From Bacteroidales bacterium (GTDB lineage Bacteria; Bacteroidota; Bacteroidia; Bacteroidales; UBA932), in contig JAGBNC010000009.1 of NCBI GenBank assembly GCA_017634595.1, positions 5,559 through 69,558 on the forward strand: 64,000 nt of DNA. The letters run 5' to 3'. The stretch's first letter is position 1, and each line of letters begins with the position of its first letter. The translations under genes were made by a program, and so were the position numbers. The notes below the pieces were generated by a model, which was not told the DNA's origin, did no database searches, and saw only the letters and a list, made by a program, of their open reading frames with translations. Below, piece after piece: positions 40,733 through 60,685 of the stretch.

Positions 40733-40855
40733 ATGAAAGAGATAGAAGTCTATTCTGCGCCTAAGTGTAAAATGATTGACTTGCAGTTGGAAAATATAGT
40801 TGCTGCAAGCGGAGAGGGAATCAATTGGGCAAATGATGGTTACGAAAACAGTTAG
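40733..40855 (+). CDS. 40-aa YxAP peptide heading a fimbrillin-like gene
   Basis: MKEIEVYSAPKCKMIDLQLENIVAASGEGINWANDGYENS*; ends 10 bp before the next ATG; similar to 45039..45191. Confidence 0.65.
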   Translation: MKEIEVYSAPKCKMIDLQLENIVAASGEGINWANDGYENS

Positions 40856-40865
40856 TTCTGGTGCT

Positions 40866-42650
40866 ATGAAGATTTCATTTCATTTTCTTGCCACATTGAG
40901 TGTGTTTGCGGCCGTCTCTTGTGTCAATGAGCTGGACCCAGTTTCGGATGGCGAAGGCAATGACGGTCCGGTCATCCTCAGTGCCACCGTCGAGGATAAC
41001 ACCAAGGCCATCGTAAAAGAAGACTCGGGAGCCTTCGAGTTCTCGGCCGAGGACCAAATCCTGGTCTGGAATGGCATCAAGGGCTATTACGGAACCACTT
41101 CCCAGGGCGGAGCCAAGGCCGATTTTACTATGGAAAAAGGCTTCGATCCGGAGCTGAAAGGCTTCGCCGCTTTCCCGCATAATAGGGCGTCATTCCCTAA
41201 CGAGAGCAGAGTGGATTTCTCCTTTCCGCAAACCTATAAGTTCCTGGAAGTGGGCTCCATCAGCGATAATGCTATCCGAGAAGGTCTAAGTATTAATTTC
41301 CCTGTAGGCCCCGACCATGGGAAAGTCCCCTGTCCCATGATTGCTTACTACAACGGAGACGGGAAGCTGAACTTCCGCCACGTAGGGGCCCTTGTCCGCT
41401 TCCGGATTACCAACACCAGCGCTGACACCGCAACCAAGGCGCTGGAAGACCTCGTTTTCACCTTCACCACGCCGGTTACCGGAGACTTCAGCATGAGCAG
41501 AGTACCTACCGGCCCGAACGAGGGTGTCCATGCATCGGACATTACCAAATACGTGGGCTACAGCATCACCGTCACGGAGGTTCCCAAAACAACTGCAGGG
41601 CAATATGTGTACATCACTCTGCCTGTGCCCGTGGACACCGATCCTAACAACGTAGGCATCTTCCAGGTTGCCAGCCGCCGGATCATCAAAACGCTCCACG
41701 GCACCCCGGTTTCCTTGAAACGGGCGGACGGCTACAAGGTGGGCACCTCCCTGGAACTGGATCCGCTGAGCAGCTTCGGCGGACGCCAGATTGCCGGTTA
41801 TCTGCACTATGGGAAGAATGCACATCACGGTGAGGAAATTGACTACGAGATTTACCCTTACCATTACTGGCCCGAACTATCCGTCCACTCTGAGCGGAAC
41901 GTAACTCATTTCGACTATAACAACATCATAGGCACCGATAATGATTACAATGGAATGGTTTGCGACCATCATATAGAGCTTTGCGGCGAAGGGGTGGAGG
42001 TCCGGTACGGCGATTACGGGAAAATCAAAGTTCGCATCCCAAAGGGGCTGGGCAGCGATTGGTTTGATATCCTGGGGGCAGCCAATGTAGAGAATAAGCG
42101 GCCGGGCGCCACGGTTTATGGGACAGGAGGAGCTCACAAAGGCGTACACTACGCCTACGTAACCGTGCGGAATTACAATGGCGATGGAAACCACTGTTAT
42201 GGCTTGCTGCTTTTCCCGGACAACGCCATCATCACCACCAAGCTAAGCGGCTATAATATACAGATAACGGAGTTCGACAAGCTCTGCGCACCTTCCACTA
42301 CCGGAAGCGACGGAAATTATGTTTCCAAAAAGGAAATGAACCGCCTGACGGACCAGGGCTGCTTCTTCATGCCCGCCGGCTTCGCAGATACCTGGGATGC
42401 CGACAACTATGATGAGAGCGATGATCATATGATTGCCAATGGCGATGGATACGTCTTCAAAGGTATCTTGAAAGAGGGCCGATACTGGACGGCGACAAAC
42501 TCTAAATACACTCCGGGGACCGAATATGACCTTGTGCCCCACTATTACTACATGAAATTCTCGGATACCGAACTACCGCACGACGCCGCATTCGTCAGAA
42601 AGTCGACCGGCGTCTACTTCAATGCTGTCGTGCTGATTAAGGCAGACTGA
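40866..42650 (+). CDS. Fimbrillin / type V pilin-like lipoprotein with C-terminal extension
   Basis: Lipobox AVS-C, TKA processing-site motif, PMIAY...LNFRHVGALVRFRI; C-terminal FMPAG...GRYWTA typical of tip-like subunits. True start at MKISF. Confidence 0.75.
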   Translation: MKISFHFLATLSVFAAVSCVNELDPVSDGEGNDGPVILSATVEDNTKAIVKEDSGAFEFSAEDQILVWNGIKGYYGTTSQGGAKADFTMEKGFDPELKGFAAFPHNRASFPNESRVDFSFPQTYKFLEVGSISDNAIREGLSINFPVGPDHGKVPCPMIAYYNGDGKLNFRHVGALVRFRITNTSADTATKALEDLVFTFTTPVTGDFSMSRVPTGPNEGVHASDITKYVGYSITVTEVPKTTAGQYVYITLPVPVDTDPNNVGIFQVASRRIIKTLHGTPVSLKRADGYKVGTSLELDPLSSFGGRQIAGYLHYGKNAHHGEEIDYEIYPYHYWPELSVHSERNVTHFDYNNIIGTDNDYNGMVCDHHIELCGEGVEVRYGDYGKIKVRIPKGLGSDWFDILGAANVENKRPGATVYGTGGAHKGVHYAYVTVRNYNGDGNHCYGLLLFPDNAIITTKLSGYNIQITEFDKLCAPSTTGSDGNYVSKKEMNRLTDQGCFFMPAGFADTWDADNYDESDDHMIANGDGYVFKGILKEGRYWTATNSKYTPGTEYDLVPHYYYMKFSDTELPHDAAFVRKSTGVYFNAVVLIKAD

Positions 42651-42669
42651 TCCTAATCCATCAGCCTTT

Positions 42670-43527
42670 TTACTGCGTCACTTTCGCCATATTTACCGTA
42701 ATCTGGTAGTATTTGCCGGGGGTGAAGCCCACGTCTTCGGCTTTCTCGTATTGATAAACTGCCCCGTCCTTATCCGTAGCAACCAGCTTGATACGGCAGC
42801 TATTGGTGGCCTTCAGCGCCACATAAATCTCGTGGGTATCTCCCGGCAAATTGAGATTCAGTTCGCCGTAGTTGTAGTCCCAGGTGATATTGTCATAGTA
42901 TTCAAGGATGTTGCTGCGAGTGTTACTGTCACTGATGATAAGGCGGACAGGATAGATGCGCTCTTTTGTGGTTGCATCCTGGAAGATAAACTTGATAATC
43001 GCCTGCAATTTGCCTTTGAACTGTAAGGTTGCTAATTCGTCAAAGATGATTTTATTACCTTCTACGCTATAAGTGTCACCGGAAGTCTCGTTAGTACTTT
43101 TTGTAACCACTTCGCAATAGTCGAATTTCGTGGCGATGGTGGCCAGCGTACCGTCCTGGCCCTCATAATTCTGGAGGGCGCTGATATAATAGAATTCCAG
43201 ACGGTCTTTAGCCGGGTCCGGAGCTTCACACATCGTACCCGTAAGCGCTGTTCTATTCGAGGAACTGGCTACGGCCGACAGCGTGCCGATGTAGGTCCTG
43301 ACATCGTATCCAACCTCGTCGTTGTAACGCTTCTTATAGACCTGAACCTCTTCCGTCCCGTCCCAGGTGGCCTTCAAGGTGTTGCCGTCGGGTGTGAGGG
43401 CTTTTGTAGCCAGGTCCTCCTTGGTGGCCTGGATGGTCAGGGTATAGCCCTGGGGCTCGAGTTCGCTATGGGTGCAGGCGGACAGCGCCGCAGCAGCAAT
43501 CAGTATAAGTGCGATATATTTCTTCAT
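42670..43527 (-). CDS. Fimbrillin / type V pilin-like lipoprotein
   Basis: Lipobox LSA-C, ATKA, QAIIKF, C-terminal FTPGKYYQITV. Confidence 0.75.
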   Translation of the reverse strand: MKKYIALILIAAAALSACTHSELEPQGYTLTIQATKEDLATKALTPDGNTLKATWDGTEEVQVYKKRYNDEVGYDVRTYIGTLSAVASSSNRTALTGTMCEAPDPAKDRLEFYYISALQNYEGQDGTLATIATKFDYCEVVTKSTNETSGDTYSVEGNKIIFDELATLQFKGKLQAIIKFIFQDATTKERIYPVRLIISDSNTRSNILEYYDNITWDYNYGELNLNLPGDTHEIYVALKATNSCRIKLVATDKDGAVYQYEKAEDVGFTPGKYYQITVNMAKVTQ

Positions 43528-43539
43528 GGCAGTTACCCC

Positions 43540-45024
43540 TTAATTCCATTCTTCTATGGCTCCTTCGTTATAGCCATCGTTTGTAGTGTAGGCGCCTTCC
43601 ACGGGCGGAACGGCCGACAGAGGGCCAATTTTACGCAGGGACATGGCATAATTTCTATTTCCAACTACTAACTTAAGCGAGCCGGAATCGAAGTCATTAT
43701 CGGTGCCGTTCCTTGGGCCATCGAAATAGAATTCAATAGTTGTATCCGGCATCCTTTCGCGCTTGATGTAGGAGCTGGTCCAGTAGTGTCCGGAATAACC
43801 ATTCTTAAGGTCGTCTTCTGGTTTCTTCCCCTGGTTGGCAACCACATCGCAGGAAGGGAAATAGATGAAACGGTTGGTGAAGCCCGTTTTCTTAGAACGG
43901 AACACGTAGCCGTCCACTATATTGAGGGGCAACCATTCGTGCGACGTGTTATTGAGCAGTTCTTTATACTGGTCCATCGAGGGCCAGTCCGAACGTGTGT
44001 CAATACCGGGCGACCAAACCTGAAGCCGCGCATAGTCCTCGCCATTGTGCTCAACGGCGTCATAAGAACCTACGATTCCGTAGGATGATGTAGCGTTGAT
44101 GTTGTACCAGGCAACGCTGAGGCCCAGATCCACAAGCGCCATCTCGTCGTATTTTTCCAGATACACATTGGACTTGTAGCTTTTTCCGGGAAGAAAACCC
44201 TGCGGCAGAAGCTTATAGCCCCAATACTGTTTGTTGTCTTCTGCAGTGACGATGAAGGTCATCAGATACCGATGCTCCTTGTCAACCGGGTCACTGCCTG
44301 CAAGGGCCACGAAATAATCCTGCCTGGAGGTGCCGTCAGTCAGGCTGGCTTCAATAATGGGCTCGGCCGTGCTTTTTCCTGTGTTGTCAAAACGTCCGTA
44401 ATAGAACGCGACCTCCTTGATGTCCATGGGCTGCCCGCTTGCAGCCAAGCAGAAAGTGAACTTCAGGATGGCCTGGTTGGCCTTCAGAGTGGCCGGACCG
44501 TTGAAAGAGAGGGTATTGGTCTCTTTTACAAAGTGGAGGGTGCTTTCTCCCTTGGCGATGTCAAAGTTCTTGGCGATGTCCGCCAAAGTGCCTTTCGTCT
44601 GCTCCCTATACCCGCTGGCGCCCAAAATCATCATGTTGGCAGCGGGCTTGTCTCCGGTTTTAAGTTTTTCGACATCCCGCTGGTTGTAGTAGAGGCTCAC
44701 CTTGTAGTCTCCACTTGCAGTATACCCCACCGTAAGGTCCCCGTGGAATTGGTTCAGATGCTCCTGGCTGTTGGTGAGGGTGCCCAGATATTCATCCGAT
44801 GCGACCCCTGATGCACTCTCTTTGGCGAATACATAGAGTTTATCGCCTGCGGCGAAACCTGCCGTGATGCCATCCTCATCGGCGGAGAGCGCCTTGGTCT
44901 GCTCCAGGGAGACGTCCAGCGCCACGTGGACCGTGCTTTTGCCCGACGGCTGCTCGAGTTGGTTGGGATTGCAGGAGAGGGCCAGGAAAGCCAGTAAAGC
45001 CAGGTAAATAATTCGTTTTCTCAT
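43540..45024 (-). CDS. Fimbrillin-like lipoprotein with VDLGLS C-terminal domain
   Basis: Lipobox ALS-C, QTKA, QAILKF, PGKSYK, then VDLGLSVAW...GHYWTSS. Confidence 0.75.
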   Translation of the reverse strand: MRKRIIYLALLAFLALSCNPNQLEQPSGKSTVHVALDVSLEQTKALSADEDGITAGFAAGDKLYVFAKESASGVASDEYLGTLTNSQEHLNQFHGDLTVGYTASGDYKVSLYYNQRDVEKLKTGDKPAANMMILGASGYREQTKGTLADIAKNFDIAKGESTLHFVKETNTLSFNGPATLKANQAILKFTFCLAASGQPMDIKEVAFYYGRFDNTGKSTAEPIIEASLTDGTSRQDYFVALAGSDPVDKEHRYLMTFIVTAEDNKQYWGYKLLPQGFLPGKSYKSNVYLEKYDEMALVDLGLSVAWYNINATSSYGIVGSYDAVEHNGEDYARLQVWSPGIDTRSDWPSMDQYKELLNNTSHEWLPLNIVDGYVFRSKKTGFTNRFIYFPSCDVVANQGKKPEDDLKNGYSGHYWTSSYIKRERMPDTTIEFYFDGPRNGTDNDFDSGSLKLVVGNRNYAMSLRKIGPLSAVPPVEGAYTTNDGYNEGAIEEWN

Positions 45025-45038
45025 TGTCCGTCCCTCCA

Positions 45039-45191
45039 TCAGATTTCGTCGAAAGGGCTATAATCGCCATAATCGCCATCGCGGTTGACCATCTGTCCTG
45101 CAGGACTTGCCACGTTGACGGCCCCTGCCGCTTCCAAGGTTACGACCTTGACGACCGGGGCATCATAATTCATTGTGCTTGCTTCTTTCAT
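45039..45191 (-). CDS. 50-aa YxAP peptide heading the reverse fimbrillin unit
   Basis: MKEASTMNYDAPVVKVVTLEAAGAVNVASPAGQMVNRDGDYGDYSPFDEI*; a TAATTTTG promoter element lies upstream. Confidence 0.65.
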   Translation of the reverse strand: MKEASTMNYDAPVVKVVTLEAAGAVNVASPAGQMVNRDGDYGDYSPFDEI

Positions 45192-45417
45192 ATAGGGTAT
45201 GATAGGATTTCAGTATGAGCATTTCGGCAAGAATGCAAAATTACAAAATAAATGGAATGGTTATCCGGGTTTTGTTTGTTTTCCGTCCTGGTCGTTGGAC
45301 AAATCTTCTGGGCCCGAGAAAGGATGATAGAATAGTTTGTTTCCTTGCGCAAAATGTTTTAGGCCAATTTACCGGCTATGCGCAAAATGTTGGCTAATTT
45401 GCCGCGGCGGCAGGAGC

Positions 45418-45675
45418 GGCCTCAACGACCACAGGGTGGACACCCCCGGCCACCGCCTCCGGGCCGACTTCTCCGACGGTGATCCCGACATCGAAGCCCC
45501 GTATTACATCCTCAAACACACCCTCTGCACCGCCGTACTTACCGAGAATGGATTCATGGATTCGCCCCTCAGCCTGGCCTTCCTGGAATCAGCCGAAGGC
45601 AAGAAAGCCATCATAACCCTCCACGTTGAGGGAATCATAGACTTCATCAACCAGCGCGCCAACGAGCCACTATAA
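45418..45675 (+). pseudogene. Collapsed N-acetylmuramoyl-L-alanine amidase
   Basis: LNDHRVDTPG (degenerate NGHGxDTPG) is fused to HRLRADFSDGDPD...YILKHT.C.AVLTENGFMD...LHVEGI. Confidence 0.75.
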
Positions 45676-45868
45676 TTCCTCCCTACTCCACCCCTTTCCC
45701 TCGACACCAAAAGATGTCGGGGCTTTTGTATTTTCAAGACAGAATTTATGACAACTGTCCGTCAATTTGCATTTGTTATTTCATTTTGTTGCTCAATCTT
45801 ATACGTCTTTACATAAAAATCGTTAAATTTGTTAGTTGCATTTTGATTATTTTGAGTTAATACACTAT

Positions 45869-47797
45869 ATGGCCAACCTGTCCAAAATAAAGCGAGACCA
45901 GATGATTGCTTTCCTGGAGAGCCTTAAGGAGTCCCACTCTGACGATGCCTCCATCCAGGCCTTCAACGAGATAGAGAATCATATCCGCGACAAGAAATAC
46001 GGCCTTGTCTGGGAGGAACATTCCGAGGAAGTGGATGACCTTCTGAAAGAGAACATCCCGATTCTTACTGCAGATCCGGAGCGTCGGCTTTGCAAAGATG
46101 CTTCTCTGCCGTGGAATTTCATCATTGAAGGCGACAATCTGCAGGCGCTCTACCTTTTGGAAAAGACTCACAAGGGAAAAGTAGATTGCATCTATATCGA
46201 TCCGCCGTATAACACGGGTGCCAGGGACTGGAAGTACAACAACGACTATGTAGACGGAAGTGATGTATACAGGCACAGCAAGTGGTTATCTATGATGAAG
46301 AATCGCCTTCTTCTTGCCAAGAACTTGCTCAATCCCGCTGACTCTGTTCTTATTTGTACGATAGACGAGAAAGAGTATCTTAGATTAGGTTGTTTGCTTG
46401 AAGAGGTATTTCCAGATGCTCGTATACAAATGGTTAGCGTTGCCATTCATTCTTCGGGCATTGCACGATCGGAGTTTTCACGGACAGATGAATATTATTT
46501 CTTTGTATTCGTAGGCTCCTCTGCTCCTGTTGCAGTCCCGCTTGGTTCAGAATGGCAGTCTGATGGAACAAAACGTCAACAAGATGTTCGTTGGGAGAGT
46601 ATGTTACGATCGGGAAATAATGGTCGACGCATAGACCGTCCGAATTTATTCTTCCCAGCCCTCTTCGAAGAGAGTACCGGTGAGTTTCTGGGCTTTGATA
46701 AACCTGTTCCGTTGGAAGTGTCTGGAGCCGATTATATACCGCCTCTTGGAGCGATTGCGATACTTCCATATGCATCAGATGGGAGCGAGGCATGCTGGCG
46801 TATCTCTGCCAAAAAGGCTCTCGAACTCAAGTCCATTGGAGCCTTTGACTGGAGTCCTATAAAGGATGGAAAGACAACATTGAAATATCTCAAGCCCGGA
46901 GAACTCGAAAAGATTGAAAAGGGTGAGTACCAAGTTGTTGGTCATAAAGAGAATGGTGCAATGATTGTTTCTGCTGAGAATTATTCTCCTAAATGGGTAC
47001 CTGGCACACAATGGCATGTGCCAACACATCAGGCAGGAGGAGCAGGTGGTAGCAGTTTGATTAAGACCGTTCTCAAAACAAAAAGATTTGATTTCCCCAA
47101 GTCATTATATGCCGTGCGGGATACTTTACGCTTCATGACGGCCAATAAACCAAATGCCATAATAGTGGACTTCTTTGCAGGTTCGGGGACAACATTTCAT
47201 GCTGTTAACCTCCTCAATGCTGAAGACGGCGGCAACAGGAAATGTATAATGGTTACGAATAATGAGGTCTCTGTCAATGAGGCCAAAGAATTAAAGGAGA
47301 AAGGATATAAGCCGGGTGATGATGAGTGGGAAAAATATGGGATTGCAAAGTTTGTTACGTGGCCAAGAACAGTATGTTGCATAGAAGGGCACGACGTTGA
47401 TGGAGACTCTTTAAAGGGCACATATACGACGAGTTTAGGCACGGAAATCAAATGCTCTGACGGTTTTAAAGCCAACGTTAAATTTTTCAAGTGCAGCTGG
47501 ACCCCCCGCAAACCGGAAGACTATCTCCTTAGCAACGCTTTGTGCCTGCATATAAAGGAGATGATTGAACTCCAGAATGCCATCGAGGTTGATAATGTGA
47601 AGAATGTTCTCATTTTGAACAAGGAAGACTTCAAGCGTACCATCCTCAACGCAGACGTTCGTCCTCATATTGAACGAGTCTGGGTGAACCAGAACATCAT
47701 ATTCAGCACCGAGGAACTCAAGGCGCTGAAAGAAATAGGCTACAAATACATTCCGAGGGAATTCTTCGGACAAGAACTCAGGGAGGCAGCAGAATAA
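45869..47797 (+). CDS. mod: Type III R-M modification methylase
   Basis: NFIIEGDNL, CIYIDPPYNTG, HSKWLSMM, FPK, VDFFAGSGTT; overlaps the next gene. Start at MANLSK. Confidence 0.92.
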   Translation: MANLSKIKRDQMIAFLESLKESHSDDASIQAFNEIENHIRDKKYGLVWEEHSEEVDDLLKENIPILTADPERRLCKDASLPWNFIIEGDNLQALYLLEKTHKGKVDCIYIDPPYNTGARDWKYNNDYVDGSDVYRHSKWLSMMKNRLLLAKNLLNPADSVLICTIDEKEYLRLGCLLEEVFPDARIQMVSVAIHSSGIARSEFSRTDEYYFFVFVGSSAPVAVPLGSEWQSDGTKRQQDVRWESMLRSGNNGRRIDRPNLFFPALFEESTGEFLGFDKPVPLEVSGADYIPPLGAIAILPYASDGSEACWRISAKKALELKSIGAFDWSPIKDGKTTLKYLKPGELEKIEKGEYQVVGHKENGAMIVSAENYSPKWVPGTQWHVPTHQAGGAGGSSLIKTVLKTKRFDFPKSLYAVRDTLRFMTANKPNAIIVDFFAGSGTTFHAVNLLNAEDGGNRKCIMVTNNEVSVNEAKELKEKGYKPGDDEWEKYGIAKFVTWPRTVCCIEGHDVDGDSLKGTYTTSLGTEIKCSDGFKANVKFFKCSWTPRKPEDYLLSNALCLHIKEMIELQNAIEVDNVKNVLILNKEDFKRTILNADVRPHIERVWVNQNIIFSTEELKALKEIGYKYIPREFFGQELREAAE

Positions 47798-50046
47798 TGT
47801 TTACAGGCGATATCATTCCTTTCCAGTCAAAGCATGAGGAGAGTCTCCTTCGCAAATGTGCAGACCATTACGAAGTCATCCTCTATGCACCTACCGGCTC
47901 TGGCAAGACAGTCCTTGTCAGCCGTTTCATCGATGACTACTTGGACGAGAATCCGAACACGGTATTTCTTTGGCTCTGCCCGGGCGCCGGTGGACTGGAG
48001 AGACAGTCTCAAGACACATTTGAGGCTGTTACTTCCGGCATTTCCGATGGCGATGTATATGATTTTATCAGCGAGCCCAATCCTCGCGGCCGTGTGTATT
48101 TCATCAACTGGGATAAGATTAATAAGAAGTCTAATGTCGTTCTGCGTGAGGGCGAGCATAAAGACCTGATGACAAAGGTCCTGCATTGCCACAACGACGG
48201 GATTGACATCTTTATGCTCATTGACGAGGAGCACAAATATCGCGATACGGCCAACGAATATGTTGCCAACATCCAGCCTGTACACGTACTCCGAATCTCC
48301 GCTACACCGGTCAGCAAAGGCGATGCTGTTGAGGAAATCAAGGACGATGAAGTCATTGCAGCTGGCTTGATTGCTTCCGGCATTTCTATCAATGAAGGTG
48401 TTTCCCGGGCCATCCAAGAGAACAACAACCTGGACGATGACCTCCAGCTGCTTGAGTTGGCAGACAAGAAGCGCAAAGAGATCCTGGCTGAATACGACAA
48501 GCGCGGGCTGAAGATTCGCCCCCTCGTCCTGATACAGTTCCCGAATGGACGGGAAGACTGGATTAAGCGAGTGAAAGACGCTCTTACAGATATGGGGTAT
48601 CCGGAAACCTCTGGACTTGTCGCTTCCTGGTTCAGTGGTGACCATCCAGACAATCCAGAGCAGATTAGCAACCTCGACGGCCAATATGCCTTCCTGCTGT
48701 TTAAACAGGCTATTGCAACTGGCTGGGATTGCCCTCGCGCCAAGATTCTCGTAAAGCTGCGTGAAGGCGGCACAGAGCGATTCAATATCCAAACCGTAGG
48801 TCGAATCCGCCGCATGCCTGAGCGCAAGCACTATGGTCTTGCACTCCTGGATAATTGCTATCTCTACACACTGGATAACGAGTTCACCGAGGGAATGACC
48901 ACCAGCCTCTCGGACTCCTTCTACACCTATCAGTACAGGCGTAAACTGACGGCCCCCAACATCCTTCTTGAAAAAGAGTCATTGGATGGAAGCGACCGCT
49001 TTGCTGTGAATCCTGAGGCTGTCGTCAAAGTAGTGCGTAAGGCCATGTTGAAGGCTTGCGACCTGAACGGCGATGGTGTACTGGAGAAGGATGAGATGGA
49101 GAAAACGAAGGGCTATATCTTCGGCACCAAACTGAAGACTTCGGCCATTGAAGGCGTTGCCCGTACAACCCACGATATGCTGAAGCTGAACAGTATCTTC
49201 GGCGGCGAACACCAGATAAACAATCACGATGATGGCTTCATCATCCGCGACGCCAAGCGTCGTATCGCTGCTGCTATCGGCGTCGATGAGAATATCTCCA
49301 ACAATGCCCTTCGTGTACTCTTTGGCCCTGGAGATTATTACAACCCCATTTTCTCCGACGAGGAGAAGGAGTTTGAGCGTAAGAACAAGCTTCTCACCGA
49401 TATGTCTCTTCGTGAATACAATGCCTTCCTGGTCAACAACAAGGAACGGCTTATAGAAGTCTTCGAACAGATCAGTTTGAACGAGATTGGTGAGATTAAG
49501 GAAACCACCATCAGGAAATCTCAGTGGGGCATCCCGGCCTACCAGTACTACAATCAGCACAAGAAGATGAAGGCCACGAAGGTCTATCAGAAGAATGTGT
49601 ATGATAACTACGGCAACAACATCCTGATTGCCCCAAACCGCACATACACCGAGATTATGTTCGAAGAGTGGTGTGAGGGCTACGACAAGGTGAAACACGT
49701 CTATAAGAACGGTGACAAGGGCGAAGACTTCTTCAGCATCGTTTACCGCCGTGCCTTCCGTAGGAACCACTTCTACCCCGACTATATCATCCAAACTACG
49801 GATGGCAAGATATGGATTCTAGAGGCAAAAGGCGGTATGACCGCTGACGGCTCCTCTAACAATATCGATAAATATGCTGGCAAGAAGTTCGATGCACTGA
49901 AAGAGTATTGCTCCCGTCACCCCGAACTCCACTGGGGCTTTGTCCGCGCTGTTGGCACCCAGCTCTACATCAGTAATACTGAGTGGGCAGAGGATGTGAC
50001 CAACGATGTAGTCTGGAAACCGATAGAATCAATAATCATGCAATAG
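47797..50046 (+). CDS. res: Type III R-M restriction subunit (helicase + PD-(D/E)XK nuclease)
   Basis: APTGSGKT, IDEEH, GWDCPRA, QTVGRIRR, FYPDYII...ILEAKG. Confidence 0.92.
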   Translation: MFTGDIIPFQSKHEESLLRKCADHYEVILYAPTGSGKTVLVSRFIDDYLDENPNTVFLWLCPGAGGLERQSQDTFEAVTSGISDGDVYDFISEPNPRGRVYFINWDKINKKSNVVLREGEHKDLMTKVLHCHNDGIDIFMLIDEEHKYRDTANEYVANIQPVHVLRISATPVSKGDAVEEIKDDEVIAAGLIASGISINEGVSRAIQENNNLDDDLQLLELADKKRKEILAEYDKRGLKIRPLVLIQFPNGREDWIKRVKDALTDMGYPETSGLVASWFSGDHPDNPEQISNLDGQYAFLLFKQAIATGWDCPRAKILVKLREGGTERFNIQTVGRIRRMPERKHYGLALLDNCYLYTLDNEFTEGMTTSLSDSFYTYQYRRKLTAPNILLEKESLDGSDRFAVNPEAVVKVVRKAMLKACDLNGDGVLEKDEMEKTKGYIFGTKLKTSAIEGVARTTHDMLKLNSIFGGEHQINNHDDGFIIRDAKRRIAAAIGVDENISNNALRVLFGPGDYYNPIFSDEEKEFERKNKLLTDMSLREYNAFLVNNKERLIEVFEQISLNEIGEIKETTIRKSQWGIPAYQYYNQHKKMKATKVYQKNVYDNYGNNILIAPNRTYTEIMFEEWCEGYDKVKHVYKNGDKGEDFFSIVYRRAFRRNHFYPDYIIQTTDGKIWILEAKGGMTADGSSNNIDKYAGKKFDALKEYCSRHPELHWGFVRAVGTQLYISNTEWAEDVTNDVVWKPIESIIMQ

Positions 50047-50058
50047 TATTTGAATTTG

Positions 50059-50874
50059 ATGAAGAAATTATTTATCCCAATAATCGCTCTCATAATCACA
50101 TCCTGCGGTTCAAATCCCCCGGTTGCTCCTACTGTCATAGATGAAAAATATGAACCCACTAATGAGGAGCTTTTTGCTGCCTGTGCTGAACTTCAGGGGG
50201 TTGGGCAATTCATAATTGGCAAAACGACGTTCAAGCAGGTTCTTGCTGATAAGGATTTCAAGAAAGCCGCTACCTCTATCTATGACCGTCAGAGTAATAT
50301 GTACAACGGCCACTGGGGGAATGATTTCTGGAACAGGAAGGGAGATAATTATGTCCTGCCCGGAGATCCAAAGGAGAAATGGATGAAGTCGAAATCTGGT
50401 CCAAAGTTAAAACAACTGCCGTCCAGTTCTTTCACTGGGATGACTATTGGAGAGTTAAAGTTTGACCCGTTCGATATGGCTTTCCTTAATGATACATTAG
50501 TGGCTATCTATTTCTATCCGGACGACAAGATTGAAGACGAAGTAATTGCTCATTATAAAGAAAAGTATGGCAACGGACGTGGAAAACGATATTCGTTTGA
50601 CTTAACAAAGTCTGATAGTCAATCGAATATCACGTCAACTAAGACTTTTGATGAGGCGCATACCTGGGAGAATGAACGCGTTGCGTTGGTGTATGAGAAA
50701 CATGAATATTTCCATATGGAACCTAATCGCAAGCCTACTGGAGACTTTAGACATTCCATGTTTATCTACAGTAAGAAGAGATATCCGTTTTTTGAAGAAT
50801 CATTATTGCGTCTCTCATCCGAATATGATACACAGAAAGAGGCAAATAAGAATCAATCACTAAAGTCTTTGTAA
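50059..50874 (+). CDS. Hypothetical lipoprotein inside the defence island
   Basis: MKKLFIPIIALIITS-C lipobox; no family recognised. Confidence 0.75.
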   Translation: MKKLFIPIIALIITSCGSNPPVAPTVIDEKYEPTNEELFAACAELQGVGQFIIGKTTFKQVLADKDFKKAATSIYDRQSNMYNGHWGNDFWNRKGDNYVLPGDPKEKWMKSKSGPKLKQLPSSSFTGMTIGELKFDPFDMAFLNDTLVAIYFYPDDKIEDEVIAHYKEKYGNGRGKRYSFDLTKSDSQSNITSTKTFDEAHTWENERVALVYEKHEYFHMEPNRKPTGDFRHSMFIYSKKRYPFFEESLLRLSSEYDTQKEANKNQSLKSL

Positions 50875-50890
50875 GTCATTGTATTTGAAT

Positions 50891-51853
50891 ATGCCCCGTA
50901 AAAAGACACTACAGGACTTTATAGAAGGTGCTCGTAAAGTGTACGGGGACAAGTATGACTATTCCAAAACAGTATATCAAGGTTCTGACACAAAAATCTG
51001 TGTCATTTGTCCGGAACATGGAGATTTCTGGCAGATTCCCAATAACTACTTGCTAGGTGCAGGTTGTCCCAAATGTGCAGGAAAGTATAACGATCTTGAT
51101 TTCTTCATCGAGCGAGCCCATAAGGTCCATGGCGACAAATATGATTATAGCAAGGCAGAGTATAAAGGAAGCAATACTAAACTCTGCATAATCTGTCCTG
51201 AGCATGGAGAATTCTGGCAAACACCCAGTGGTCATATGCTTGGCCAAGGTTGCCCAGTTTCTGCGGGAAGGTATATGGACACAAATCTTTTCATAGAACG
51301 ATGCACTGAAGTTCATAATGGAAAGTATGACTATTCTCTCGTCGACTACAAAAATGCGACAGAGAAAGTCAAGATCATTTGCCCAAGGCATGGAGTTTTT
51401 GAGCAAGTCGCATCTGCACACTTGTGGGGAAATGGTTATCCCATATGCAACCAGAGTCACCTTGAGAATTATGTGATGAGAGTTCTCAAATCACAGAAAA
51501 TCGAGTTTGAAACACAGAAAGCCTTTGAATGGATGACATTCAGAGGGAAAATGCATCTTGATTTCTTCCTCCCTGAACAAGGAATTGCTATTGAGTGTCA
51601 GGGTGAACAGCATTTTGTGCCTAGTGAATTCTTTGGCGGTGAAACAATGTTTATTGATACACAGGCCAGAGATAAGGCTAAACGTGAATTGTGTGAGGCC
51701 CATGGTATCAAGATGTTATACTTTTCAGACCTCGGTATAGAGTATCCCTACCCTGTAATTGAGAACCCGGATACTCTTCTAATGGAGATTTGGAATACAG
51801 GCGAGCCAGACCCAACTATGTGGAAAGATCCAGAACTGCCACTGTTTGTTTGA
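50891..51853 (+). CDS. Zinc-binding repeat protein with DUF559/Vsr-like nuclease domain
   Basis: Three ~62-aa repeats (YDYS...ICPxHG...GxPxC) followed by LDFFLPEQGIAIECQGEQHF. Confidence 0.8.
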   Translation: MPRKKTLQDFIEGARKVYGDKYDYSKTVYQGSDTKICVICPEHGDFWQIPNNYLLGAGCPKCAGKYNDLDFFIERAHKVHGDKYDYSKAEYKGSNTKLCIICPEHGEFWQTPSGHMLGQGCPVSAGRYMDTNLFIERCTEVHNGKYDYSLVDYKNATEKVKIICPRHGVFEQVASAHLWGNGYPICNQSHLENYVMRVLKSQKIEFETQKAFEWMTFRGKMHLDFFLPEQGIAIECQGEQHFVPSEFFGGETMFIDTQARDKAKRELCEAHGIKMLYFSDLGIEYPYPVIENPDTLLMEIWNTGEPDPTMWKDPELPLFV

Positions 51854-51873
51854 TGTTAACGTAGGTTCTATTA

Positions 51874-53139
51874 ATGGATGCTGAATTATTAAGACCTTAT
51901 CTGGACTGGTATAAAGCCAACTTCGCAAGCATCTTTGCGAAACACGAGGACTATAAGTGGGAGTCTATACAGACTTTCCAGGAAGCTTATCTGCCCGATA
52001 AGGCCAACTACCTTATAATTCTGAAAGAGGGCTTCAAACGGAGTGAGAATCTTCTCAATAGCCGTAGCGTGTATTCCCTGGGCATGATGCTGGACATTAC
52101 CAAGTTCAGCCAGTCACACCCCGATATTCAACCCTCTGGTCTGGATTTGTTCTATGAGCTATTTGAGGGTATCTCTCCAGAAGATACAGGAGACGTGCTG
52201 TTAGGGAAGATTTCCTCTTTCCGAAACCAAATCCGAGCATTTGTCAAGGCCAACCAGCCAGAAAAGCACAATGACTATCAGGACCTCCATGCCGTATCCG
52301 TTTACCTCAACCACCGGTATCCGGATAGGTTCTACATGTATAGAACCTCCGAATTCATGGAATTCAACGCCCTGATTGGTAATGAGTATCCGTATAAATG
52401 GGGCTCCGATCGCAACTACCTGGCTTACCTCGATATGTGCGATGACCTCAACGCCATCCTTCGCCAGGAGCTGGAACTGGATGCGGGGTTCCGTTTGGCA
52501 GTAGAAACTGCTGTCAATTCTGATTCGAAGTATTTCAAGGATGTTGAGAGACGTATCTTGACACAGGATTTCATCTATTCCGTTACCCGCTATTACAAGA
52601 TGGATATGACCGGACGGTATGCGGAACAGATGAAGACAAAGAGCCTGACCACCAAGGTTGATTATGTTGCTGTTGAGGATCTGAAACCTAAGGATCATAC
52701 AACGCCAGTTGCCGCCGGAAGTTCGACTCCTTCAAAGACGGACTACGTCCTCCGTCAGAAAGAAAACAATCGTCTTGGTGCTGCTGGAGAGCAGTGGGTG
52801 TACGCGTATGAAAAGAAGCGTCTCCTTGCTGCTGGACGGAAGGATCTGGCCAAGAAGGTTGAATGGGTTGCTCAGAAAGATGACTCGAAGGGTTATGATA
52901 TTCTCTCCTTTGACGAAGAGGGAAACGAACTGTTCATTGAAGTTAAAACCACTAATGGAGGCATTAAGACGCCGTTTTACCTATCGGCCTTAGAAATGGC
53001 TGTTAGCGGCAGCAACGCTGCGAAATATCGGCTCTATCGCGTCTACGATTTCCTCAAGGCGCCGAAGCTGCGCGTCATCATCGGCAATATCGGCTTACTG
53101 AATCCTCAGCCCACGAATTACATAGTATACACTGATTAA
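51874..53139 (+). CDS. DUF3883 (NO VEIN C-terminal-like) nuclease with N-terminal putative DNA-recognition domain
   Basis: LGAAGEQWV...GYDILSF...IEVKTT...FYLSALE...YRLYRVY; N-terminal EDYKWESIQTFQ and DLHAVSVYL..RYPDRFY. Confidence 0.85.
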   Translation: MDAELLRPYLDWYKANFASIFAKHEDYKWESIQTFQEAYLPDKANYLIILKEGFKRSENLLNSRSVYSLGMMLDITKFSQSHPDIQPSGLDLFYELFEGISPEDTGDVLLGKISSFRNQIRAFVKANQPEKHNDYQDLHAVSVYLNHRYPDRFYMYRTSEFMEFNALIGNEYPYKWGSDRNYLAYLDMCDDLNAILRQELELDAGFRLAVETAVNSDSKYFKDVERRILTQDFIYSVTRYYKMDMTGRYAEQMKTKSLTTKVDYVAVEDLKPKDHTTPVAAGSSTPSKTDYVLRQKENNRLGAAGEQWVYAYEKKRLLAAGRKDLAKKVEWVAQKDDSKGYDILSFDEEGNELFIEVKTTNGGIKTPFYLSALEMAVSGSNAAKYRLYRVYDFLKAPKLRVIIGNIGLLNPQPTNYIVYTD

Positions 53140-53149
53140 TTACCGGCCT

Positions 53150-54052
53150 ATGGACACCCCGAAAATCTCCAAACTCCTTCGCCTGATGAAACTCCTCACC
53201 GGGAATGTGAGCCGGACCATTGACTCGCTGGCCGAGGAACTGGGCGTAACAACACGGACGGTGTACCGCTACATCGACACCATTCGGGAGGCGGGCTTCG
53301 TGGTGAACAAGCTCTACGGCAACGTGTACGCAATGGGCAAAGTGGCCCGGGGCCTCACCGACTTCAAGAAGCTCATCTATTTCACCGACGAGGAGGCCTA
53401 CCTGGCCGCCAGGATGATAGAGGGCATCGACAATAACAATGCCCTAAAGCGGGACCTGCAGCGGAAGCTGGCCAGCGTCTATGACTGCACCAGCATTGCC
53501 AACTATATCGACAATCCCGCCAATGCGGCGAACATCGAGGCGCTGAGCGAGGCTATGAAAAACAAGGTGCAGGTGGTGCTTCGAGGCTATGAATCGGCCC
53601 ATAGCGATGAGACGCGGGACCGCGTGGTGGAGCCGTTCTCGTTTACGGCGAATATGATTGACGTGTGGGCCTACGACGTGGAGAAAGGCGACAGCCGGAT
53701 GTTCAAGGTGATGCGCATCCATTCCGTTGAGGCAACCGAGACGCCCTGGGCCTTCGAGGATAAGCACGAAGTCAAAAAGCCGGATGTGTTCAGGATGACC
53801 GGATCACCGGTAGAGAAGGTGGTCCTGCAGCTGAACACCCGCGCCAAGAGCCTCCTGTTGGAAGAATACCCGCTGGCGGAGAGGGATTTGCATCGCGAGG
53901 ACGGTAAGTGGGTGCTGCGGACCACCGTGAAGGCGCTGGAAGGGGTTGGCCGGTTTGTGATTGGCCTGGCGGCGGATGTGAAGGTGGTGGAGGGGAAGAA
54001 GCTGGTGGGGTATGTGAGGAAGTATGATAAGAAGTGGGTGCAGAAGATATAG
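53150..54052 (+). CDS. WYL-domain HTH transcriptional regulator
   Basis: LAEELGVTTRTVYRYIDTI HTH; YESAHS..RDRVVEPF...WAYD...RMFKVMRI. Confidence 0.92.
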   Translation: MDTPKISKLLRLMKLLTGNVSRTIDSLAEELGVTTRTVYRYIDTIREAGFVVNKLYGNVYAMGKVARGLTDFKKLIYFTDEEAYLAARMIEGIDNNNALKRDLQRKLASVYDCTSIANYIDNPANAANIEALSEAMKNKVQVVLRGYESAHSDETRDRVVEPFSFTANMIDVWAYDVEKGDSRMFKVMRIHSVEATETPWAFEDKHEVKKPDVFRMTGSPVEKVVLQLNTRAKSLLLEEYPLAERDLHREDGKWVLRTTVKALEGVGRFVIGLAADVKVVEGKKLVGYVRKYDKKWVQKI

Positions 54053-54057
54053 GAATA

Positions 54058-55245
54058 TTATCGTCCCAGGAACCATTTCCAGGCAGGAACGATGTGAATG
54101 ATTCCCAGTGCATCCTGGACATCTTCTTCCATATCGCGCGTGACAATGGTCAAGTCCCTGCAGCCCGTTAAGCTAGCAGCTTCACGAATGCCGTTCAACT
54201 CCCGTTCCCGGGTGTCTTTGTCTTTCATATCCCAGCATACCTGAATCAGTTGATTTACGGCAGTTTCGGTCTGGATAACGAAGTCACATTCCTTCTCCCC
54301 AAGGTAATAGCAGATCTTCTGTCCGTCAGGAAGATTCCTGAGCAATTGCAGGAACACGGCGTTCTCTAACAGAATTCCATCATCATCCTTACCTGGCAGC
54401 AAAACAGATTGACGTAGCCCATTATCTACACAATAGTATTTGGGAAGAGCGCTGGTCTCCTTCTTGAAGGATAGGTCAAACTTGGTCACCTTGTAAAGCA
54501 GGAAGATTGAGCAGGTTTTGTCGGCAATATCATACAGGCCGTCTTTGGTGACTTTCCGGCCTTGGGAGCGCATGTCGTTGTAGATAGCGTTGATAGATGC
54601 CGGCTTGGTCATGCCGGCCATCAGACGTTTGATTACGTATTTGACGCGTTCCGGATTGGACAGTTTGTATCGGTCCATCAAATCTCGGAAGATCATGGCG
54701 TTGAAGTATCCTTGCAGGAGTTTATCCTTCATTACGCGACTGGGCTCAAGGACCACTTCCGGATATCCGCCTTCGTGGACAAAGGAATCGAAGGTGCAGC
54801 GAAGAAGCGCTAAGTCTTTCTCCAGATGGCTGTCTGTAGGGATGCCCTTAAACTGACAGTATTCCTTGAAGGACAGAGGATATTCTTTATATTCAAGCGG
54901 CCAGCCCCTAAGTGCGGTATTTAGCTCTTCGGATAGCATATCGGCATTGCTACCGGAGATGAAGATGTGTTTGCTGTAGTGCTTGGACAGGCGCATAACG
55001 AAGAGTTCCCAGCCTTCGATGCGCTGGATTTCGTCGAAGAAGAAGTAAACGTCCTTGATGGGGATATCCGGGAACATCTCCATATAGGCCTCCAGGATGG
55101 TGTTGAAGTCAGAGTTCCATCAGTGTGGATTTCCCACAACGTCGCACCCCTACGGTGGTTATGATCTTCTTAGAATCTATGGGAAGCTCAACTTCACGGG
55201 GATTATAGGAAATAGGAATTTCCTCCTGTTTGAGGGCTATTAGAA
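54058..55245 (-). pseudogene. AAA_14/DUF4143 ATP-binding protein, disrupted
   Basis: Walker A part (LIALKQEEIP...GVRRCGKSTLMEL*) is out of frame with the FFFDEIQ...LLENAVF...ECDFV part (ORF 54058..55083); junction near 55112-55116; no start codon. Confidence 0.85.
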
Positions 55246-55387
55246 TTAAGGAAAGATTTTGTAAAAATTTCCTGAAATTCAGGAAAGATTACATTCCCTC
55301 TTCTTCCCAGGCATGTAGGGTTTTAGTTTTGTAAAATTCTAGGAAAGGTGTATAGATTGCCTTCCGAAAACTCTAGGATTCGTGATT

Positions 55388-55650
55388 ATGAGAAGAAAGA
55401 TATACTACAAGCTTCTCCAGTGGGAGCAAGAGTTACATTGCAAAGGAATTCGCCCGCAATGAATATGACTCATTCATCCTTATCGATTCCAAAAGGAAAA
55501 TGTTACTTCCAGGCATAATATTTCGCCAATAGAAGTTAAAAGTAGCACAAACTACACGCTCACATCGCTGAGGAAGTGCATCAGTACTGGACGGAGCTTC
55601 GTTCGCAAAGCTCATCACGAAGCCGGAGATGTTGGCTCTTTTCATGGTTG
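55388..55650 (+). pseudogene. Multiply collapsed AAA_14/DUF4143 remnant
   Basis: MRRKIYYKLLQW | KSYIAKEFARNEYDSFILID | SRHNISPIEVKSSTNYTLTSLRK, in different frames. Confidence 0.75.
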
Positions 55651-59124: not shown

Positions 59125-59940
59125 TTATATGGTTTTGAGCCCGATGAAGTGCTTGATTCCGGGTGTTTGGCAGTCCCGGTAGTCTTTGTTGATGCGGATG
59201 AGGGTTACATCCGAATATTTTGCAGCCATCCGTTCGAAGGGGAAACGGATAATAGTTGGGGTATTGAAACCGACGCCGTATTCAATCAGTGCCAGTTTTC
59301 CTTTGCCGAGCGATTTCTCCAAAAAAGCGTAGTAGCGCTCTGCCTGCTGATGCCAGCGGTCGTCCTCCACAAAGTACCGGTCCTTGCGGACATTGATTTC
59401 CATCGGCCCGCCGCAGACGGGACACCGAGGAACCAGCGATGAAGGGATGCGGCAGTCTTTCTGCTCAGCGACCATCTGCTTCACAAGCGATTCATTGTTG
59501 TATCGCTTGGGGTGGCAGGCTGTAGCGCACTGCATGAGGCCGTAATCTCCCTGCACTTCAAACACCTTGTCCGGGTCAAAACCAGCCTTGACAAACTGTC
59601 CGTCCACATTGGTGGTAATAACAAAATAGTCCTTCCCCTGTATCATCTCAAGCAGGTGCTTGTACAGCGGTTTCCCTTCTGGGGCGAAGCGGGCATAGTC
59701 AATGTGCCGGGACCAGTAGGCCCATTTCTCTTCCTCGCTCCGGAACGGATAGAACGAGGATGTGTACAGATCCGTGAAGCCGTAGCGTGCAATCATATCG
59801 GCGAAGGCTTTCTCGAAGTCGGGTCCGCCATAGTTGATACCGGCAGCCGTTGACAACCCGGCTCCTGCGCCGATGAGGACGGCATCGGCCTGCGCAATGG
59901 CTGATTCAGCCTTTTGCAAGGGCGATTTGATAAAGCTCAT
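59125..59940 (-). CDS. Class M sirtuin (SirTM-like) ADP-ribosyltransferase
   Basis: IGAGAGLS, YFVITTNVDGQF, VQGDY (Gln replacing the catalytic His), QCATAC...CPVC, EYGVGFNTP. Start at MSFIKS. Confidence 0.88.
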   Translation of the reverse strand: MSFIKSPLQKAESAIAQADAVLIGAGAGLSTAAGINYGGPDFEKAFADMIARYGFTDLYTSSFYPFRSEEEKWAYWSRHIDYARFAPEGKPLYKHLLEMIQGKDYFVITTNVDGQFVKAGFDPDKVFEVQGDYGLMQCATACHPKRYNNESLVKQMVAEQKDCRIPSSLVPRCPVCGGPMEINVRKDRYFVEDDRWHQQAERYYAFLEKSLGKGKLALIEYGVGFNTPTIIRFPFERMAAKYSDVTLIRINKDYRDCQTPGIKHFIGLKTI

Positions 59941-60685
59941 GGTCAATGTCTTTGAAAGTGTTGAAGACGACAGTTTTGACGGACGATTCAGGGTGACTCG
60001 CCATCCAGGAACGGACGGTGGAAACGGCAATCTCGCAGGCCTGGTCATTGGGGAAGCGGAATTCTCCCGTGGAGATGCAACAGAAAGCAATGGATGCCAG
60101 ACCATGCTTGTGTGCAAGATCCAGGCAGGATGTGTAGCAGGAAGCCAGCTGCACTTTCTGCTGGCGGAGGGGCCGGGGAGTCGTCACAATGGGACCGACA
60201 GTGTGAATGACATGCTTTGCCGGGAGGTTGAACCCAGGCGTTATTCTGGCACTGCCCGTTGGCTCTTCCGTGCCGTGCATCATCTTCTCGCACGCAAGCC
60301 TGAGCTGTACGCCCGCCGCCGAATGGATGGCATTGTCAATGCAGCGGTGAAGGGGCACAAAACAGCCCAGCATCTGCGAATTGGCGGCATTGACGATGGC
60401 GTCCACCTTCAGGCGTGTGATGTCGCCCTGCCATTCGCGAAGAGATTGACCTGCAATCTCCACCACCCCTTTCTCCGCCAACTGCGCCTGCAACTCTTCA
60501 TCCTGCACCTGCAGGAACTCCTCAGATACAGGCACCGGCGGCCGCACGTTCATCAGTGCCCGGAAAAAGTCCCGCCTCTCCTGCAGGGAGTCCGGTACGG
60601 GCATATGCCGATACCTGGGATTCTCATCCAGCAGGCATCGGCAAAGCCACTCAAGACGATTATATTCAGAATCCGAATTTTCCAT
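59906..60685 (-). CDS. Zn-binding macrodomain protein-ADP-ribose hydrolase
   Basis: WQGDIT, AIVNAAN, GCFVPLHRCIDNAIH (C-x4-H-x-C), HTVGP, CISTGEF. Confidence 0.92.
   Translation of the reverse strand: MENSDSEYNRLEWLCRCLLDENPRYRHMPVPDSLQERRDFFRALMNVRPPVPVSEEFLQVQDEELQAQLAEKGVVEIAGQSLREWQGDITRLKVDAIVNAANSQMLGCFVPLHRCIDNAIHSAAGVQLRLACEKMMHGTEEPTGSARITPGFNLPAKHVIHTVGPIVTTPRPLRQQKVQLASCYTSCLDLAHKHGLASIAFCCISTGEFRFPNDQACEIAVSTVRSWMASHPESSVKTVVFNTFKDIDHELYQIALAKG

Follow-up and report, generated by a model that had tools for sequence, protein, structure and literature searches.

Do the genes that lie between a type III restriction-modification (R-M) pair and a WYL regulator in a Bacteroidales genome add further layers of defence against phages? 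We addressed this question in a 64,000-nucleotide (nt) stretch of contig JAGBNC010000009.1 from a Bacteroidales bacterium, hereafter the window; all unlabelled coordinates are window positions, and L-numbers (L010, L014, L098 and so on) designate other loci that were compared with it. A previous sequence-only reading had described positions 45869-54052 as a defence island of six co-oriented, tightly spaced genes, and this layout was found again by open reading frame (ORF) listing and translation: all six ORFs share one orientation, with spacing ranging from a 1-nt overlap to 20 nt. Family scans (Pfam, PADLOC, NCBIfam) recovered its domain calls, and the identities given to the type III R-M pair, the DUF3883 nuclease and the WYL helix-turn-helix regulator stood in Pfam and PADLOC. 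The view of the region as a defence island is supported by a seemingly intact type III R-M system and the WYL gene, and 24 genomes of the same genus were found to lack any relative of the DUF3883 gene. As a whole, the region is best explained as a horizontally acquired anti-phage operon of ~8.4 kb, made of four independent layers and a WYL regulator, an explanation in which we have somewhat more confidence than doubt. The island itself is of an ordinary kind and holds one moderately new enzyme design. The novelty is confined to this design, in which an N-terminal domain that we call X is fused to a DUF3883 nuclease, and to its regular placement next to methyltransferase systems. The six genes are the following:

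45869..47797, plus strand: Mod, type III methyltransferase, 642 amino acids (aa) (PADLOC MTase_III E 2.4e-149; Pfam N6_N4_Mtase)
47797..50046, plus strand: Res, type III, 749 aa, superfamily 2 (SF2) helicase and C-terminal nuclease (Pfam ResIII E 1.9e-11; PADLOC REase_III E 4e-12)
50059..50874, plus strand: lipoprotein, 271 aa from ATG (signal peptide and lipobox, ...LIITSC)
50891..51853, plus strand: zinc-repeat (Zn-repeat) nuclease, 320 aa, three treble-clef Zn repeats and a C-terminal nuclease domain (CapR/DUF723/DUF4379 zinc-repeat families; PHROGs)
51874..53139, plus strand: DUF3883 protein, 421 aa (Pfam NOV_C (DUF3883) E 1.1e-19)
53150..54052, plus strand: WYL regulator with winged helix-turn-helix (wHTH), WYL and WCX domains, last gene, 10 nt after the DUF3883 gene (Pfam, PADLOC)

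The DUF3883 protein and its X domain

Within the fifth gene, two domains were delimited:

51874..52623, plus strand: N-terminal all-alpha X domain, residues 1-250 (hhalign and BLASTP to the McrB-family N-terminal domain)
52756..53088, plus strand: DUF3883/NOV_C PD-(D/E)xK nuclease domain, residues ~295-405 (Pfam NOV_C; PADLOC PDC-S36 and PD-T4-1)

The predicted catalytic D/E/K residues of the nuclease domain are intact, D342, E356 and K358 (D342...E356-x-K358) being invariant in 22 homologues of 29-93% identity. In the AlphaFold2 (AF2) model, whose mean predicted local distance difference test score (pLDDT) was 83.7, the X domain (~90) is followed by a disordered linker and then by the alpha/beta nuclease domain. 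The X domain matched no Pfam family, nor did it match MrcB_N/DUF3578, and Foldseek returned no fold match for it in PDB or BFVD; the whole model gave only weak resemblances, which concerned the nuclease domain.

A clear relationship was observed with the McrB family. Comparison of X with the set of N-terminal domains of this family using hhalign gave a probability of 100% (E 1.7e-69, 226 columns), and the first 250 residues of an 865-aa "McrB family protein" encoded in the genome of a relative align to X (BLASTP E 9e-18). A search seeded on the N-terminal region of the McrB protein recovered 73 proteins, mostly AAA_5 McrB-like GTPases with or without EVE, together with several NOV_C fusions and one HNH fusion. 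The NCBIfam McrB model confirms that these partners of X are genuine homologues of McrB (E values reach 2e-92), and Pfam architectures that include X comprise X-EVE-AAA_5 and EVE-X-NOV_C. Among the candidates scored, 1709 proteins belonged to the X + DUF3883 family at E <= 0.001; full-length X-DUF3883 proteins occurred at only 2 loci in viral contigs and at none on plasmids.

Fusions of a reader domain with DUF3883, namely YenY4I and the McaZI/BwiMMI/EfaL9I group, have been described as modification-dependent enzymes or T4gt restrictors, located in islands and often beside methyltransferases (Lutz et al. 2019, PMC6765204). The window protein is built in the same way, with a sensing domain at the N-terminus and DUF3883 at the C-terminus of one polypeptide, and lies in the same kind of surroundings; it differs in that its N-terminal domain is an unannotated all-alpha domain shared with McrB, and not PUA, EVE or DUF3427. 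As for McrBC, X takes the N-terminal position of the DNA-recognition domain in McrB homologues, and the homology is unambiguous. Unlike McrBC, the window protein has neither an AAA+ GTPase nor a McrC partner, its nuclease is fused directly to X, and X is unrelated to the N-terminal domain family of E. coli McrB. PADLOC matched the protein to PDC-S36 (E 5.1e-46, positions 111-263 of 280) and to PD-T4-1 (E 4.2e-18, positions 234-343 of 383), which are also single genes for proteins of ~400 aa with a C-terminal DUF3883 nuclease. However, their N-terminal parts do not match the window protein: no full-length match to either profile was obtained, and only the C-terminal nuclease part aligns. The term PDC-S36 appeared in no paper of the literature searched.

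Genomic company of the DUF3883 gene

Close relatives of the DUF3883 gene (57-93% identity), all from rumen or gut metagenomes, gave 8 further distinct contexts. In 8/8 of these a methyltransferase-based system stood beside the gene, usually directly upstream and in the same orientation. The gene orders observed were:

L014-17: type III Mod-Res, 8-repeat Zn-repeat gene, DUF3883 gene
L012/13: different type III, NOV_C gene, DUF3883 gene, 108-aa gene, Mrr_cat gene
L010/11, L107: type IIG, Zn-repeat gene, DUF3883 gene, WYL gene
L098-100: same type IIG as L010, DUF3883 gene, WYL gene, no Zn-repeat gene
L106/108: type ISP-like methyltransferase, 193-aa gene, Zn-repeat gene, DUF3883 gene, WYL gene
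L101, L109: SNF2-NOV_C, DUF1156, DUF499, DUF3883 gene
L102-105: BREX (bacteriophage exclusion) operon, divergent from a 198-aa gene and the DUF3883 gene

The DUF3883 gene of L012 is thus preceded by a second NOV_C gene and has an Mrr_cat gene on its other side. The Zn-repeat gene adjoins the DUF3883 gene in 4 contexts including the window, always at a distance of 20 nt. The promoter region of the window (45635-45832) is 78% identical to positions 3821-4018 of L106, yet the R-M genes of the two loci are unrelated; the Zn-repeat, DUF3883 and WYL genes are common to both and 87% identical. A common promoter region despite unrelated R-M genes suggests cassette exchange between conserved ends, with an exchangeable R-M middle. 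At 28 more distant genome loci (~30% identity), the 103 neighbours included ResIII (4), Eco57I (3), SNF2 (3), N6_Mtase (2), Fic (4), integrase (2) and one McrB-like gene; the remainder comprised many housekeeping genes, which suggests that the DUF3883 gene is able to stand alone.

Two of these neighbourhoods hold further genes of possible interest for defence. In L101 (140-9990) and L109 (668-9990), a SNF2 helicase that carries a NOV_C domain of its own at the C-terminus, DUF1156 and DUF499 directly precede the DUF3883 gene, a trio that looks like a methyltransferase-based defence system. In L098 (4574-8680), four co-oriented genes come after the WYL gene. They encode a protein of 270 aa, one with a HIRAN domain, one of 165 aa and a DUF4236 protein of 796 aa, and may represent a further defence module that shares this regulator.

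By homology and context, the most likely role of the DUF3883 protein is that of a type IV-like (modification-dependent) nuclease that works alone and complements R-M; the McrB-homologous X domain, the published reader-DUF3883 enzymes and the methyltransferase neighbours all point this way. In such an island, Mod would methylate the host sites, and Res, as a helicase-nuclease, would cut invading DNA that is unmethylated. The X domain would recognise a DNA feature, probably a base modification other than the N6-methyladenine (m6A) of the neighbouring systems, the C-terminal PD-(D/E)xK domain would cut the target DNA, and the enzyme would in this way cover phages that escape R-M through DNA modification. 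The WYL protein would sense a ligand and adjust expression accordingly. A wider proposal, which we advance tentatively and hold to be rather less than evenly probable, is that X is an undescribed reader of a DNA feature or modification that is plugged into McrB GTPases, HNH and DUF3883 nucleases. Among the Bacteroidales of rumen and gut, X-DUF3883 would have been recruited systematically next to m6A-type systems (type III, IIG/ISP, DUF1156/DUF499, BREX), in most cases as the last gene, and would catch hypermodified phages; the homing endonuclease in the spacer could help to move the cassette.

The main rival is a nuclease of the PD-T4-1/PDC-S36 kind whose trigger is something other than a modification (candidates are a phage protein, DNA ends and replication intermediates), and which might act by abortive infection under repression by WYL. 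The PADLOC scores given above speak for such a nuclease, as do the WYL gene placed directly after the DUF3883 gene in 4 contexts including the window, the lack of a known reader fold in X, and the validation of PD-T4-1 as a single-gene defence system that protects E. coli (PMC9519451). These PADLOC matches are nevertheless confined to the nuclease domain, the partners of X (McrB GTPases, EVE, HNH) form the usual domain set of type IV systems, and the neighbours in L012 are Mrr and NOV_C genes, so that we judge this explanation unlikely, while taking it more seriously than any other competitor. A functional coupling of the DUF3883 protein to the methyltransferase system upstream is less probable again. 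The protein would then not be autonomous, and would guard against anti-restriction proteins or read methyl marks as "self". Its position next to methyltransferase-based systems of four kinds, in every close-clade context, is what such a coupling would lead one to expect. But these partner systems are mutually unrelated, which makes a specific protein-protein link unlikely, and distant members of the family often stand alone among housekeeping genes. The co-location of type IV and R-M genes in shared islands is, moreover, an already known pattern.

Several observations weigh against a modification-dependent layer within a regulated four-layer operon. The active methyltransferases next door can be tolerated only if the target of the DUF3883 protein differs from their m6A. 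X has no recognised reader fold, and since EVE coexists with X in some relatives, X might not be the modification reader but a scaffold or a clamp on DNA. The related contexts form a small sample that favours long contigs, mostly from rumen and gut metagenomes, and R-M-like neighbours were present in only about one third of the 28 distant loci. The WYL gene is missing in 4/8 related contexts, and its position at the 3' end is unlike that of BrxR. Finally, the Zn-repeat ORF of the window is still open with an intact nuclease motif, and residual function may remain.

The lipoprotein and Zn-repeat genes

The sequence-only reading had taken the three middle genes as candidate defence components, possibly of a back-up layer. 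The DUF3883 gene is their conserved core and a credible extra layer of this kind, whereas the lipoprotein gene is cargo and the Zn-repeat gene is selfish. PADLOC recognises the nuclease domain of the DUF3883 protein (PDC-S36, PD-T4-1) and neither of the other two proteins. Only the DUF3883 gene is consistently found with methyltransferase systems; the lipoprotein occurs in unrelated contexts and the Zn-repeat gene is absent from 4/8 related contexts.

The lipoprotein family has 71 members and no match in Pfam, NCBIfam, PADLOC or PHROGs, and the AF2 model of the lipoprotein (predicted template modelling score, pTM, 0.82) gave no significant fold match in PDB using Foldseek. Its homologues were observed beside a DpnII-type R-M system between two AAA_14/DUF4143 genes, in a resolvase islet and in a block of genes of no assigned function, and they occur elsewhere without either nuclease. 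The lipoprotein is missing in 8/8 related contexts; in L014, whose Res is 95% identical to that of the window, Res directly adjoins the Zn-repeat gene. In the window the lipoprotein gene is bracketed by two 13-nt copies of a direct repeat, 835 nt apart:

50046..50058, plus strand: junction repeat copy 1, GTATTTGAAT(T/A)TG, immediately 5' of the start codon of the lipoprotein gene (direct-repeat family D10)
50881..50893, plus strand: junction repeat copy 2, before and including the start codon of the Zn-repeat gene (direct-repeat family D10)

Because it is absent from related loci, has unrelated neighbourhoods elsewhere and is bracketed by this 13-nt duplication, the lipoprotein is an unrelated, independent cargo inserted in a variable slot between Res and the next gene. 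The same slot is filled by unrelated small genes in other loci, and the junction repeat may be the footprint of small cargo genes entering it. Other possibilities were considered for this slot. No kinship was found among the small accessory genes that occupy it in other loci. An origin of the lipoprotein as prophage cargo was unsupported, no viral contig of IMG/VR encoding a relative. A replacement of the N-terminal half of the 635-aa Zn-repeat protein by the lipoprotein was rejected, as the two show no similarity and recombination between repeats 1 and 6 explains the shortening of the former.

The fourth gene had been described as a zinc-repeat/DUF559-like nuclease. The zinc-repeat part of this description agrees with the zinc-repeat families matched, but no Pfam DUF559/Vsr match was found at the C-terminus; the nuclease assignment is based on the motif LDFF...IECQGEQH and on homing-endonuclease families of PHROGs (phrog_559, E 2.1e-64; phrog_9084, "homing endonuclease", E 3e-20; phrog_7140, E 2.5e-8). 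No match was obtained in PADLOC or, by sequence, among solved structures. The protein matched 1010 phage records at 2433 places, with several copies per genome and some annotated as homing endonuclease, and it matched 40230 representative clusters of highly variable length.

Relatives from islands are 635 aa long with 8 repeats, and identity is 77-90% across the 4 contexts including the window. The window copy retains the first 16 and the last 317 residues of this longer form, with 3/8 repeats left, and the first of these is chimeric, joining repeat 1 to repeat 6, which indicates that five repeats were lost by recombination between repeats. Each remaining repeat carries one ligand substitution (NNH to NNY, CPVC to CPVS, GCPIC to GYPIC); NNY, CPVS and GYPIC are unique to the window copy among the 5 copies compared (0/4 relatives). 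When L010 was compared with L098/L100, the whole Zn-repeat ORF (1941 bp; L010 6804-8745) corresponded to 12 bp (L098/L100 2401-2414), between an upstream type IIG gene of 82% nucleotide identity and a downstream DUF3883-WYL pair of 76%. We regard this precise presence or absence between syntenic genes as decisive for a selfish insertion.

Taken together, the Zn-repeat gene is a selfish, phage-type, free-standing homing endonuclease, shortened and decaying in the window, to judge from its sequence, and with a predicted cleavage activity. With the free-standing homing endonucleases of phages (PHROG 559/681/9084) it shares a repeat array followed by a C-terminal nuclease, a variable number of repeats and intergenic presence or absence. 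It differs from them in being resident in a bacterial defence island, and in the truncation and damaged Zn sites of the window copy. A domesticated defence effector, in which the zinc-finger array reads phage DNA and the nuclease cuts it, would fit the open ORF, the intact nuclease motif and the presence of copies in 4 island contexts including the window (77-90% identity). This is improbable in view of the presence/absence polymorphism, the great abundance of such genes in phages with multiple copies per genome, the loss of 5/8 repeats and of ligand residues in every repeat remaining in the window, and the lack of a PADLOC match.

We consider it very improbable that the three middle genes, for the lipoprotein and the two nucleases, together make up a single new multi-gene system that is coupled to type III R-M and backs it up. 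The three genes are tightly spaced, co-oriented and probably co-transcribed, and the Zn-repeat and DUF3883 genes keep their 20-nt spacer in each of the 4 contexts where they adjoin. But the lipoprotein is absent from every related context and is found elsewhere without either nuclease, the Zn-repeat gene is absent from half of these contexts by a clean presence/absence insertion, and the slot carries unrelated small genes in other loci.

The type III pair, the regulator and the edges of the island

The type III R-M system looks intact, as predicted from motifs and family matches. Mod starts with ATG, in an ORF that is open from a TTG at 45836, and its translation contains IDPPYNTG (DPPY) and DFFAGSGTT (FAGSGTT; S-adenosylmethionine (AdoMet) motif of the FxGxG type). 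The start of Res overlaps the stop of Mod by 1 nt; GSGKT, DEEH and QTVGRIRR were read from its translation, as was a C-terminal PD-(D/E)xK motif (YPDYII...ILEAKG). Compared with the Mod of the metagenomic relative L014, residues 1-180 and 540-642 are ~97-100% identical, whereas residues 181-540 are only ~45% identical. Conserved ends around a diverged centre are the classical pattern of a specificity-domain swap, and the predicted target-recognition region of Mod is thus swapped relative to L014, changing specificity. Phase variation of mod through simple-sequence repeats was rejected, no such repeats being found in the gene. The pair resembles EcoP15I-type systems in its mod-res order with stop/start overlap, in the DPPY and FxGxG motifs of Mod and its swappable central target-recognition region, and in a Res where an SF2 helicase precedes a C-terminal PD-(D/E)xK domain. 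By contrast, the window Res is short (749 aa), scores weakly against curated type III models (REase_III E 4e-12; NCBIfam 21 bits versus a cut-off of 564) and had no match in a sequence search of solved structures.

The last gene encodes a protein with HTH_11 (residues 9-53, E 1.6e-9), WYL (128-194, E 5.1e-6) and WCX (222-290, E 4.1e-5) domains, and PADLOC WYL matched at E 6.2e-21. It lies 10 nt after the DUF3883 gene in 4 contexts including the window (L010, L098-100, L106-108; 74-86% identity). Regulators of the BrxR/CapW family are WYL proteins of defence islands (Picton et al. 2022, PMC9122601), and homology and context suggest that the window protein is a ligand-sensing regulator of this type, acting on the operon or on the DUF3883 gene. 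Like BrxR/CapW, it combines wHTH, WYL and WCX in one protein of ~300 aa and is co-located with defence systems. Unlike them, its gene is the last of the operon and not upstream, no inverted-repeat operator was found before Mod (45660-45880), and a search of PDB at E <= 0.01 gave no BrxR match and only PafC (E 1e-3) and PH1932.

The features that border the island, which had been described as an amidase remnant on the left and decayed AAA ATPases on the right, were retrieved by Pfam and tblastn:

45337..45675, plus strand: N-acetylmuramoyl-L-alanine amidase remnant that keeps ~50 residues from the C-terminal end of the domain (Pfam Amidase_3 positions 125-173 of 174)
45699..45722, plus strand: terminator-like hairpin, 3' of the amidase remnant (consensus scan only)
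45824..45831, plus strand: -7 promoter box TAAATTTG of the Bacteroidetes type, 38 nt before the Mod ATG (pattern search)
54058..55083, minus strand: AAA_14/DUF4143 ATPase gene without its N-terminus and lacking the Walker A part (only Pfam AAA_14 positions 62-129 of 129, plus DUF4143)
55385..55487, plus strand: fragments of the N-terminal part of an AAA_14 gene, spread over two frames (tblastn with intact homologues from L005)

The amidase remnant is the left edge of the island and the truncated AAA_14/DUF4143 gene its right edge. The match of the former to Amidase_3 (E 3.9e-5, 24.2 bits) is slightly under the gathering score of 27 bits; homology to L106 begins within it, at 45635, and amidase remnants also stand beside the related islands L101 and L109. 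Flanking direct repeats were sought as attachment (att) sites of the island, and this candidate was rejected as no convincing repeats were found. The guanine-cytosine (GC) content drops to 0.40 across the lipoprotein and Zn-repeat genes, against ~0.50 around them. The absence of a relative from the 24 same-genus genomes makes the DUF3883 gene accessory, and probably the surrounding island too.

TAnnTTTG is the consensus of Bacteroides promoters. On the plus strand from 45700 to 54052, TAAATTTG was its sole match. This lone -7 box before Mod and the tight gene spacing suggest one transcription unit, and the six genes are probably one operon.

Whole or broken AAA_14/DUF4143 genes recurrently flank variable islands in these Bacteroidales genomes (in the window, 54058-55083 and 55385-55487; in L005, 3139-4485 and 11851-13194), and they may mark insertion hotspots or be part of a mobile element. 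To the left of the island, three large ORFs of 616, 285 and 499 aa (40800-45039) matched neither Pfam nor PHROGs, and to its right a Sir2-family gene (E 1.1e-7) was found at 59125-60117.

Overall, the island carries a caution for guilt-by-association, since one of its three uncharacterised middle genes is cargo and another a selfish element. The conserved tail cassette, with the homing endonuclease in some loci, the DUF3883 gene and WYL in some, follows four unrelated kinds of methyltransferase system and points to a modular assembly of defence loci. Together with the presence/absence pattern, it suggests that homing endonucleases help to move neighbouring defence genes. The X + DUF3883 design could supply a new specificity module for the type IV, modification-dependent toolbox, including tools for the mapping of modified bases.

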